A stretch of 64,000 nucleotides of DNA from Escherichia coli. Its GTDB lineage: Bacteria; Pseudomonadota; Gammaproteobacteria; Enterobacterales; Enterobacteriaceae. Location of the stretch: assembly GCF_046105845.1 (NCBI RefSeq), contig NZ_CP151004.1; one strand, 5' to 3'. The notes under the pieces were generated by a model. The model searched no databases and was not told the origin of the DNA. It saw only the letters and a list, made by a program, of their open reading frames with translations. This document shows positions 28,367 through 64,000 of this stretch, one piece after another (position 1 is the first letter of the stretch; each line of letters starts with the position of its first letter). Both the position numbers and the translations under genes were made by a program.

Positions 28367-28478
28367 CCCCGGCTAGACCGGGGTGCGCGAATACTGCGCC
28401 AACACCAGGGAAATCTTGGCTGCGCCGTAAATTATTATGATGAGTTACAAGGGCACAGCACTGTTTTTCAGGCCGCAC
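28358..28478 (-). ncRNA. arcZ: ArcZ small RNA (Hfq-dependent)
   Basis: Minus strand reads GTGCGGCCTGAAAAACAG...CCCCGGTCTAGCCGGGGTCATTTTTT, matching recalled ArcZ; terminator overlaps arcB stop codon; about 121 nt. Confidence 0.8.
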
Positions 28479-49946: not shown

Positions 49947-50065
49947 AATCTCGCGCTAACAACCTGGAATCGAGCCGTCATACTACGGCGCAACGCCCTA
50001 TAAAGTAAACGATGACCCTTCGGGAACTTCAGGGTAAAATGACTATCAAAATGTGAATTGTAGCT

Positions 50066-50099
50066 GACCTGGGACTTGTACCCGGGTCGGTATTTTTTT
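50066..50099 (+). promoter_or_regulatory. greA leader intrinsic terminator (GraL-type attenuator)
   Basis: gacctggg/cccgggtc hairpin followed by T7 run about 95 nt upstream of greA start; matches the known leader terminator that yields the GraL RNA. Confidence 0.55.
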
Positions 50100-56750: not shown

Positions 56751-56837
56751 GCCGAGGTGGTGGAATTGGTAGACACGCTACCTTGAGGTGGTAGTGCCCA
56801 ATAGGGCTTACGGGTTCAAGTCCCGTCCTCGGTACCA
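56751..56837 (+). tRNA. leuU: tRNA-Leu
   Basis: 87-nt sequence GCCGAGGTGGTGGAATTGGTAGACACGCTACCTTGAGGTGGTAG...GGTTCAAGTCCCGTCCTCGGTACCA with long variable arm, ending in CCA. Confidence 0.93.
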
Positions 56838-60617: not shown

Positions 60618-60694
<77 letters not shown>

Positions 60695-60817
60695 CTTTCC
60701 CTTAGAGTCCTTTTTCAAATATACTGTGAAGACTTCGGCCTTCGTAGTGGGATTTGAAAAAATCCTTCTGGAAAGTGCTCCAGACCGCAGTTGCGGTTAT
60801 AGGGTTCAGTTATATAA

Positions 60818-60843
60818 AGCCCCGATTTATCGGGGTTTTTTGT
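60818..60843 (+). terminator. Partial terminator between metY and rimP
   Basis: agccccga/tcggggtt hairpin followed by T-run. Confidence 0.7.
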
Positions 60844-60900
60844 TATCTGACTACAGAATAACTGGGCTTTAGGCCCTTTTTTTATGTCTTGGGGGTGGGC

Positions 60901-61380: not shown

Positions 61381-62868
<1,488 letters not shown>

Positions 62869-62892
62869 TAAACTGTAGCAGGAAGGAACAGC

Positions 62893-64000
62893 ATGACAGA
62901 TGTAACGATTAAAACGCTGGCCGCAGAGCGACAGACCTCCGTGGAACGCCTGGTACAGCAATTTGCTGATGCAGGTATCCGGAAGTCTGCTGACGACTCT
63001 GTGTCTGCACAAGAGAAACAGACTTTGATTGACCACCTGAATCAGAAAAATTCAGGCCCGGACAAATTGACGCTGCAACGTAAAACACGCAGCACCCTTA
63101 ACATTCCTGGTACCGGTGGAAAAAGCAAATCGGTACAAATCGAAGTCCGCAAGAAACGCACCTTTGTGAAACGCGATCCGCAAGAGGCTGAACGCCTTGC
63201 TGCGGAAGAGCAAGCGCAGCGTGAAGCGGAAGAGCAAGCCCGTCGTGAGGCAGAAGAATCGGCTAAACGCGAGGCGCAACAAAAAGCTGAACGTGAGGCC
63301 GCAGAACAAGCTAAGCGTGAAGCTGCTGAACAAGCGAAACGTGAAGCTGCGGAAAAAGACAAAGTGAGCAATCAACAAGACGATATGACTAAAAACGCCC
63401 AGGCTGAAAAAGCCCGCCGTGAGCAGGAAGCTGCAGAGCTCAAGCGTAAAGCCGAAGAAGAAGCGCGTCGTAAACTCGAAGAAGAAGCACGTCGCGTTGC
63501 TGAAGAAGCACGTCGTATGGCGGAAGAAAACAAATGGACTGATAACGCGGAACCGACTGAAGATTCCAGCGATTATCACGTCACTACTTCTCAACATGCT
63601 CGCCAGGCAGAAGACGAAAGCGATCGTGAAGTCGAAGGCGGCCGTGGCCGTGGTCGTAACGCGAAAGCTGCGCGTCCGAAGAAAGGCAACAAACACGCTG
63701 AATCAAAAGCTGATCGTGAAGAAGCACGCGCAGCAGTACGTGGCGGTAAGGGCGGAAAACGTAAAGGTTCTTCGCTGCAGCAAGGCTTCCAGAAGCCTGC
63801 TCAGGCCGTTAACCGTGACGTTGTGATCGGCGAAACCATCACCGTTGGCGAACTGGCGAACAAGATGGCGGTTAAAGGCTCTCAGGTCATCAAAGCGATG
63901 ATGAAACTGGGCGCAATGGCAACCATCAACCAGGTTATCGATCAGGAAACCGCACAGCTGGTTGCTGAAGAGATGGGCCACAAAGTTATCCTGCGTCGTG
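62893..64000 (+). CDS. infB: Translation initiation factor IF-2 (5' part, runs off window end)
   Basis: ATG at 62893 with GGAAGGA SD; [29 protein letters not shown]... with charged repeat region; absent from the track because no stop lies in the window. Confidence 0.93.

Follow-up and report, generated by a model that had tools for sequence, protein, structure and literature searches.

Two degenerate repeat arrays, an internal start region and rare in-frame length alleles in the N-terminal part of Escherichia coli IF2

The charged, repetitive stretch near the start of infB, the gene for IF2 in Escherichia coli, raises the question of what its repeats encode, whether their number differs between natural strains and whether they account for the long open reading frames on the opposite strand. 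A sequence-only reading of the 64,000-nt stretch of E. coli DNA analysed here (the window) had placed a single repeat region in the IF2 N-terminal domain at 63160-63540, had held its tandem repeats responsible for two spurious antisense ORFs and had suggested that repeat copy number can vary between strains. The best explanation, in which we have high confidence, is that this stretch encodes the N-terminal part of E. coli IF2, highly charged and built from repeats. Two degenerate tandem arrays would code for a pair of long, solitary alpha-helices in which Ala, Glu, Arg, Lys and Gln abound, and the break between the helices would coincide with the internal start codons of the shorter isoforms.

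The window ends in the E. coli operon metY-rimP-nusA-infB (Table 1); the same operon order is annotated in E. coli strain 118UI. Translation showed that positions 63160-63540 correspond to IF2 codons 90-216. A 521-nt probe (63100-63620) was used to search complete E. coli genomes and matched annotated infB in 5,425 of 5,426, with an identity of at least 99% in 5,363 of the 5,425. The probe was 100% identical to infB of strain 118UI and 99.6% identical to that of K-12 MG1655. About 2 nt in 521 therefore separate the window allele from the K-12 gene, which is nothing material, and the gene, its operon position and its start codons are the same as in K-12, which has three IF2 isoforms (IF2-alpha/-1, IF2-beta/-2 and IF2-gamma/-3). 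All E. coli records among the 60 matches listed carry infB as the annotation. The infB gene of 118UI encodes 890 aa with the expected Pfam domains and scored 988 bits against TIGR00487 (cutoff 424) over aa 306-889, a score that refers to the full 118UI gene, as the window itself holds codons 1-369 only. Within the IF2 fragment of the window, PF04760 (IF2_N) was matched in two stretches (97 bits) and PF08364 (IF2_assoc) was matched with 63 bits. The gene is thus a member of the IF2 equivalog family (infB; NCBIfam TIGR00487), and the probe identities together with the two IF2_N matches and the IF2_assoc match identify the region as the standard infB N-terminal sequence.

The same searches gave several minor observations. 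One of the 5,426 genomes labelled as complete lacked any match to this segment of infB, an essential gene, and some E. coli genomes had up to 4 places matching the probe. In PLSDB, nine records labelled as plasmids carried this infB region; four of them were 4.8-5.4 Mb and most of the others 0.35-0.8 Mb in size, and the infB-carrying records appear to be chromosomes or chromosomal fragments mislabelled as plasmids. A 91-kb PLSDB record of Enterobacter roggenkampii also carried infB. Other gathering-level Rfam matches in the window were the ArcZ sRNA at 28371-28478 (-), the greA leader at 49977-50098 (+) and a second tRNA at 56751-56834 (+), which fit the arcB-to-infB segment of the E. coli chromosome.

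Table 1. Features at the end of the window and natural infB length alleles of E. coli. Positions are those of the window; aa numbers refer to IF2. AF2, AlphaFold2.
Feature	Position	Strand	Description
tRNA	60618-60691		Rfam match
rimP leader	60783-60883		Rfam match
nusA ORF	61381-62868		ORF list; rimP ORF listed too
infB (IF2)	62893..64000	+	ATG at 62893; first 369 of 890 codons, then window end
N1 subdomain (first IF2_N copy)	62893..63042	+	aa 1-50; Pfam; AF2 pLDDT 84-91
IF2_assoc region	63058..63174	+	aa 56-94; PF08364; AF2 beta hairpin aa 58-92
Helix A, predicted	63178-63372	+	aa 96-160; AF2 pLDDT 85-93 (aa 100-150); encloses block A
Repeat block A	63181-63363	+	aa 97-157; about 7 degenerate 24-nt/8-aa units, [AEQ][EQ]xA[QRKE]REA
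Synonymous-conservation zone	63340..63375	+	codons 150-161; around IF2-beta start
GTG codon 158, IF2-beta (IF2-2) in-frame start	63364..63366	+	translation; published knockout site
ATG codon 165, IF2-gamma (IF2-3) in-frame start	63385..63387	+	translation; published knockout site
Helix B, predicted	63391-63534	+	aa 167-214; AF2 pLDDT 73-84; encloses block B; start of domain II
Repeat block B	63433-63534	+	aa 181-214; degenerate 21/24-nt, 7/8-aa units
N2 subdomain (second IF2_N copy)	63832..63984	+	aa 314-364; best Pfam IF2_N stretch
Antisense ORF, 214 aa	63052..63696	-	in register with infB codons; non-coding by-product
Antisense ORF, 109 aa	63042..63371	-	non-coding by-product; same-frame continuation is a 53-aa ORF, 63372..63533
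Allele +24 nt (+8 aa)	block A		exact AEEQAQRE duplication; IF2 of 898 aa; 6 genomes including AST198
Allele -48 nt (-16 aa)	block A		two units lost; IF2 of 874 aa; STEC2018-553
Allele -96 nt (-32 aa)	block A		four units lost; IF2 of 858 aa; N68, CSF isolate
Allele -21 nt (-7 aa)	block B		EEARRVA lost; IF2 of 883 aa; 4 records, 3 strains
Allele -24 nt (-8 aa)	block B		EEEARRKL lost; IF2 of 882 aa; 29 records, one clone

The charged character of the region is real. Of its 127 residues, 32 are Glu, 29 Ala, 18 Arg, 13 Lys and 12 Gln (82% E/A/R/K/Q), and the 10-residue motif noted before is present twice, at aa 137-146 and 145-154. The repetition is real as well; only its singleness has to be given up, for the region consists of two arrays with a non-repetitive spacer between them that carries internal start codons. 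Tandem Repeats Finder detected 24-nt arrays at 63202-63257 and 63244-63358 in block A, and a 24-nt array at 63445-63494 and a 21-nt array at 63481-63528 in block B. Autocorrelation of the block A protein sequence at lag 8 was 0.64, compared with 0.21 in composition-preserving shuffles (z = 8.3), and the block A DNA at lag 24 gave z = 7.6 against codon shuffles. The periodicity of block B was weaker, with z = 4.0 and 3.1 at lags 7 and 8. The periodicity of the blocks is well beyond what composition would produce by chance. Two adjacent block A units at 63301-63348 are identical in protein sequence only in E. coli. In most other genera the second unit is ADKAKREA (GATAAA instead of GAACAA), and a small conversion event copying the upstream unit could account for the two neighbouring base changes.

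A Pfam search of the IF2 fragment found no domain over aa 97-214, the part that holds both blocks. An AlphaFold2 model was built with 41 orthologues, and each block lay within a long predicted helix. The model as a whole is poor (mean pLDDT 68, pTM 0.24), and the helices are to be read as predictions. The pLDDT fell below 50 at aa 160-165, between helices A and B, where the shorter isoforms begin, and also for aa 215-269 and 283-313. In helix A, 51% of the residues are charged and 3% are hydrophobic, and 17 opposite-charge pairs at i/i+4 were counted where 7.7 were expected (z = 4.2). Helix B is 8% hydrophobic and has 20 such pairs against 8.2 expected (z = 5.4). This charge pattern is what is to be expected of single helices stabilised by salt bridges, and not of coiled coils. 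Laursen and colleagues (J Biol Chem, 2003) reportedly found residues 98-157 to be helical, with a repetitive hydrophilic sequence, by NMR of domain I; predicted helix A agrees with this.

Single alpha-helix (SAH) domains of the ER/K type are found for example in myosins VI and X and in caldesmon. Like these, the IF2 blocks are rich in E, K, R and A, are nearly free of hydrophobic residues, are enriched in i/i+4 pairs and are predicted as long solitary helices joining two folded parts. By charge, scarcity of hydrophobic residues, i/i+4 pairs and predicted helix, they have the sequence properties of an ER/K-like single alpha-helix linker. The IF2 helices differ from classic ER/K motifs in being richer in Ala and Gln. 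The resemblance concerns a way of working, without common ancestry, between established SAH domains and IF2 helices that are known here from prediction.

Helix A, built from 24-nt/8-aa units, would end domain I and would tether the N1 subdomain to the rest of the factor, and helix B, built from 21/24-nt units, would open domain II. The N1 subdomain is present only in full-length IF2-alpha and binds NusA (PMC12297416). By sequence comparison only, the 890-aa IF2 sequence was found in solved ribosome complexes (3jcj and four others); the N-terminal region of IF2 is missing from existing structures (PMC11838494).

The spacer between the blocks was overlooked in the sequence-only reading, and it contains the start codons of IF2-beta and IF2-gamma. 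Both in-frame codons of the three-isoform system, GUG158 and AUG165, are present in infB of the window, and the 6-residue break between the predicted helices would coincide with them. Codons 158 and 165, nt 472-474 and 493-495 in the published numbering, are the sites of the knockout mutations g474c and t494c (PMC3334882), and an internal infB start was detected by Ribo-RET in K and B strains (10.1101/520783). Initiation at the internal infB codons is thus supported by the literature (PMC3334882, 10.1101/520783, PMC12297416).

We aligned the window with 80 other Enterobacteriaceae species (81 sequences) to examine variation at synonymous sites. Codon 158 was GTG in 81 of 81 sequences, without synonymous variation, and codon 165 was Met in 89% of species. 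Codons 153-161 (GCG GAA AAA GAC AAA GTG AGC AAT CAA) were almost invariant at synonymous sites. In sliding windows normalised by amino acid, the synonymous diversity of codons 150-161 was 0.11-0.23 of expectation, and in the 81 sequences no other part of the 369 codons fell below the 5% permutation threshold. A purine-rich sequence, GGAAAAAGA, lies at 63351-63359, just upstream of GTG158, and is unpaired in the minimum-energy fold. The conservation of codons 150-161 is as expected of an internal ribosome-binding region, and such a region would explain why the surroundings of GUG158 are nearly frozen in Enterobacteriaceae. The internal start region at 63340-63387, and not the repeats, is the one functional element of the interval at the nucleotide level. 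A structured RNA at the internal start was considered and rejected (z = -0.79 for a 121-nt fold), and the Rfam search found nothing within infB. Further dips of synonymous diversity, to about 0.31-0.5 of expectation, were seen at codons 17-27 (62941-62973) and 104-118 (63202-63246); they did not pass the permutation threshold (0.30) and were not accepted as conserved zones.

To compare repeat copy number between strains, length alleles were sought with strict E-value limits, which only unbroken alignments pass, and with junction-specific probes; variants were uncovered from the weakest passing records. The strict limits were used because megablast joins the pieces flanking an indel into one place of 100% coverage. 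Identity and coverage counts from megablast were therefore discarded as an indel census: a probe for the N68 junction 'matched' 3,013 genomes at a coverage of at least 80%. Block A was unbroken in 5,406 of 5,425 genomes and block B in 5,390 of 5,425. The 35 broken block B records comprised the 29 and 4 records of the two deletion alleles, one artefact and one uninspected record. The artefact is NZ_CP027552.1, a record whose sequence starts within infB, at the equivalent of window position 63485. For block A, 19 records were broken or divergent, of which 2 were inspected, and the 6 duplication carriers are additional to these; they pass the unbroken filter because the duplication sits near the probe edge.

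As shown in Table 1, the suggestion of varying copy number was borne out by five in-frame alleles, found in 41 of 5,425 complete genomes. The comparison across infB alleles also showed that they are rare. The 41 verified records (0.76%) come from about 12 strains or clones and reflect 5 or more separate events, and the upper bound on variants is about 59 of 5,425 records (1.1%). All 29 records of the -8 aa allele are chromosomes of about 5.16 Mb from strains Esc1-Esc29 and CNR20191027 (isolated from urine in Belgium); they are one clone sequenced many times, so that the frequency per genome is inflated. Each of the five alleles is in frame and gains or loses a whole number of local units. Alignments placed each indel junction within an 8-14-nt stretch common to both units involved, a pattern that we infer to be the footprint of slippage or unequal recombination. 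The identical stretches of 8-14 nt in neighbouring units would allow either process to add or remove whole units occasionally, giving viable but rare length alleles.

The array length is also stable across Enterobacteriaceae. Individual units align as orthologues across genera in the 80 other species. The distance from KRDP to the GTG was 65 aa in 63 of 79 scorable species, 73 aa in 12 species and 64 aa in 4 species; the distance of 73 aa corresponds to one extra unit and was found in Phytobacter, Kosakonia, Mangrovibacter, Franconibacter, Siccibacter and others. An apparent block A length of 47 aa in one species was traced to an upstream in-frame AAAGTGA hit by the regular expression and is not a true deletion. 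The infB repeat array is slow and ancient and not hypervariable; its copy number does not differ in a substantial fraction of strains, as it would in a VNTR.

The natural length alleles resemble mutations selected in the laboratory. The target of lamotrigine is domain II of IF2, in which the drug selects in-frame deletions and a short duplication without growth cost (PMC4371806). Published resistance alleles include IF2-delta8 and IF2-delta17, the latter removing aa 176-192 (PMC10486304). Like these, the natural block B alleles are in-frame losses of repeats in helix B and domain II. The natural deletions of 8 aa and 7 aa, at aa 188-203, adjoin or overlap the published delta17. The natural -8 aa allele and the published delta8 belong to the same class of change, a likeness that may not extend to the exact residues. 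The two groups differ in origin: laboratory selection at 15 C gave the published alleles, and the natural ones were found in clinical isolates that have no known exposure. Domain I, which holds the natural block A alleles, is not part of the reported lamotrigine target.

Tentatively, and with more doubt than conviction, we propose that the natural helix B deletions are functionally equivalent to the lamotrigine-resistance alleles and, more broadly, that the length of block A tunes the reach of N1. The helix B candidates for such an equivalence may be the -8 aa allele of the Belgian urinary clone and the -7 aa allele of three strains. If the proposal is true, a small fraction of clinical E. coli is already insensitive to lamotrigine, an inhibitor of ribosome biogenesis. 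Strains with helix B deletions could also differ in ribosome assembly at cold temperature. In block A, the changes of +8, -16 and -32 aa might set the distance that N1, which binds NusA, can span from the part of IF2-alpha held on the ribosome. The literature already covers the gene, the repeats, the isoforms and the tolerance of in-frame indels, and all that is mildly new is the list of natural length alleles together with their likeness to mutations that confer lamotrigine resistance. The original observation was correct and the region is well characterised, so that its value as a discovery is small. The five natural whole-unit alleles, in about 0.8% of complete genomes, provide a baseline for studies of IF2 domain I and II length, of lamotrigine and of the IF2-NusA tether.

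The two antisense ORFs described earlier are present in the ORF list with exactly the boundaries reported (Table 1), and they are spurious, as had been supposed. The part of the claim that failed is the cause, since the tandem repeats do not produce them. In the antisense frame that is in register with the sense codons, a stop can arise only where the sense strand has a TTA, CTA or TCA codon. Of these, the infB fragment contains no TTA, no CTA and two TCA codons, and the two TCA codons bound the 214-aa antisense ORF. In synonymous permutations that kept the residues identical, the in-register frame measured 231+/-53 codons, compared with 216 observed, and the other antisense frame 104+/-37 codons, compared with 109 observed. 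Shuffling of codon order within codons 90-216, which destroys the periodicity, left the lengths unchanged (216 observed and 216 after shuffling; 109 observed and 87+/-29 after shuffling). When synonymous codons were drawn without bias, the in-register antisense stretch still averaged 139 codons. The ORFs also overrun the repeats by more than 100 nt. These lengths are due to the amino-acid composition and the codon bias of a highly expressed gene and not to repetition. A sequence of GAA, GCN, CGT, AAA and CAA codons leaves few stop triplets on the opposite strand, TTA, CTA and TCA are avoided by highly expressed genes, and the antisense ORFs are side effects. They are a textbook case of long antisense ORFs opposite highly expressed, codon-biased genes, with no difference from it.

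Further searches were made around the ORFs. Pfam found no family in either antisense ORF, a search of both strands of 62800-63900 found no sigma-70-like promoter, and terminator-like sites over 62800-63900 were at chance level. No antisense gene is annotated among the 60 matches listed, in which infB stands alone. The 214-aa ORF has at least one internal stop in 57 of the 80 other species, and a TTA at codon position 130 is a frequent one (22 species); the 109-aa ORF has an internal stop in 32 of the 80. Another antisense ORF of 489 aa was observed at 61567-63036 (-). It is in register, covers nearly all of nusA and the nusA-infB junction and is longer than both of the flagged ORFs, although nusA has no such repeats. 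As nusA is nearly without the three relevant codons (TTA 1, CTA 1, TCA 0), this ORF is the same artefact of codon bias. In gene calling and in scans, the long antisense ORFs opposite infB and nusA ought to be kept out of the set of candidate genes.

Other explanations of the region have to be weighed against the reading as two tandem-array helices. In one of them, the N-terminal repeats form a disordered multivalent region for RNA-dependent phase separation in the cold, and the number of repeats tunes condensation and not reach. Recent work describes the entire N-terminal region of IF2 as intrinsically disordered and condensate-forming, with a supporting role in cold growth and in condensation that depends on RNA (PMC11838494). 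Condensation with RNA is driven by this region, above all at low temperature, the beta isoform has lost much of this ability, and deletion of aa 1-294 causes cold sensitivity (PMC11838494). The low pLDDT (<50) at aa 215-269 and 283-313 also points to disorder there. The repeat blocks themselves, however, are predicted with fairly high confidence as uninterrupted helices, they have the salt-bridge spacing (i/i+4) that characterises stable single helices, and the condensation study itself describes predicted helical regions that are consistent with spectroscopy (PMC11838494). We therefore think it rather unlikely that disorder and condensation account for the repeats. The helix view and the condensate view are compatible, because charged helices can be multivalent.

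Two other explanations are far less probable. That the arrays form a hypervariable locus of the contingency or VNTR type, with frequent adaptive changes of copy number, would fit the five distinct in-frame whole-unit indels in natural isolates and the speed with which lamotrigine selects the same class of indel in the laboratory (PMC4371806; PMC10486304). We regard it as very improbable, since at least 98.9% of the 5,425 complete genomes have the standard length, 29 of the 41 variant records are one clone, the degenerate units have identical runs of only 8-14 nt, and the units are orthologous across 80 other species with an unchanged array length in 63 of the 79 that could be scored. It is less credible still, to the point of being almost negligible, that one or both antisense ORFs (63052..63696 and 63042..63371) represent genuine genes overlapping infB. 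With 214 and 109 aa they are long, each has a start codon, and the GTG start of the 214-aa ORF corresponds to sense codon 268 (His), for which 65 of 81 sequences have CAC. Their lengths nevertheless equal the null expectation even when the order of codons is shuffled, they are interrupted in many relatives, they have neither a Pfam family nor a promoter-like site nor an annotation in the records listed, and over nusA the same frame holds an antisense ORF that is longer yet. An overlapping gene would be longer than composition predicts and would be kept open in relatives, and neither is the case here. On the sense strand, a stop-free stretch of 145 codons was observed at 63389-63823 (+), in frame +1 relative to infB. 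It contains the Lys/Arg-rich ORF 63419..63826 of 135 aa, which looks like another by-product of composition.
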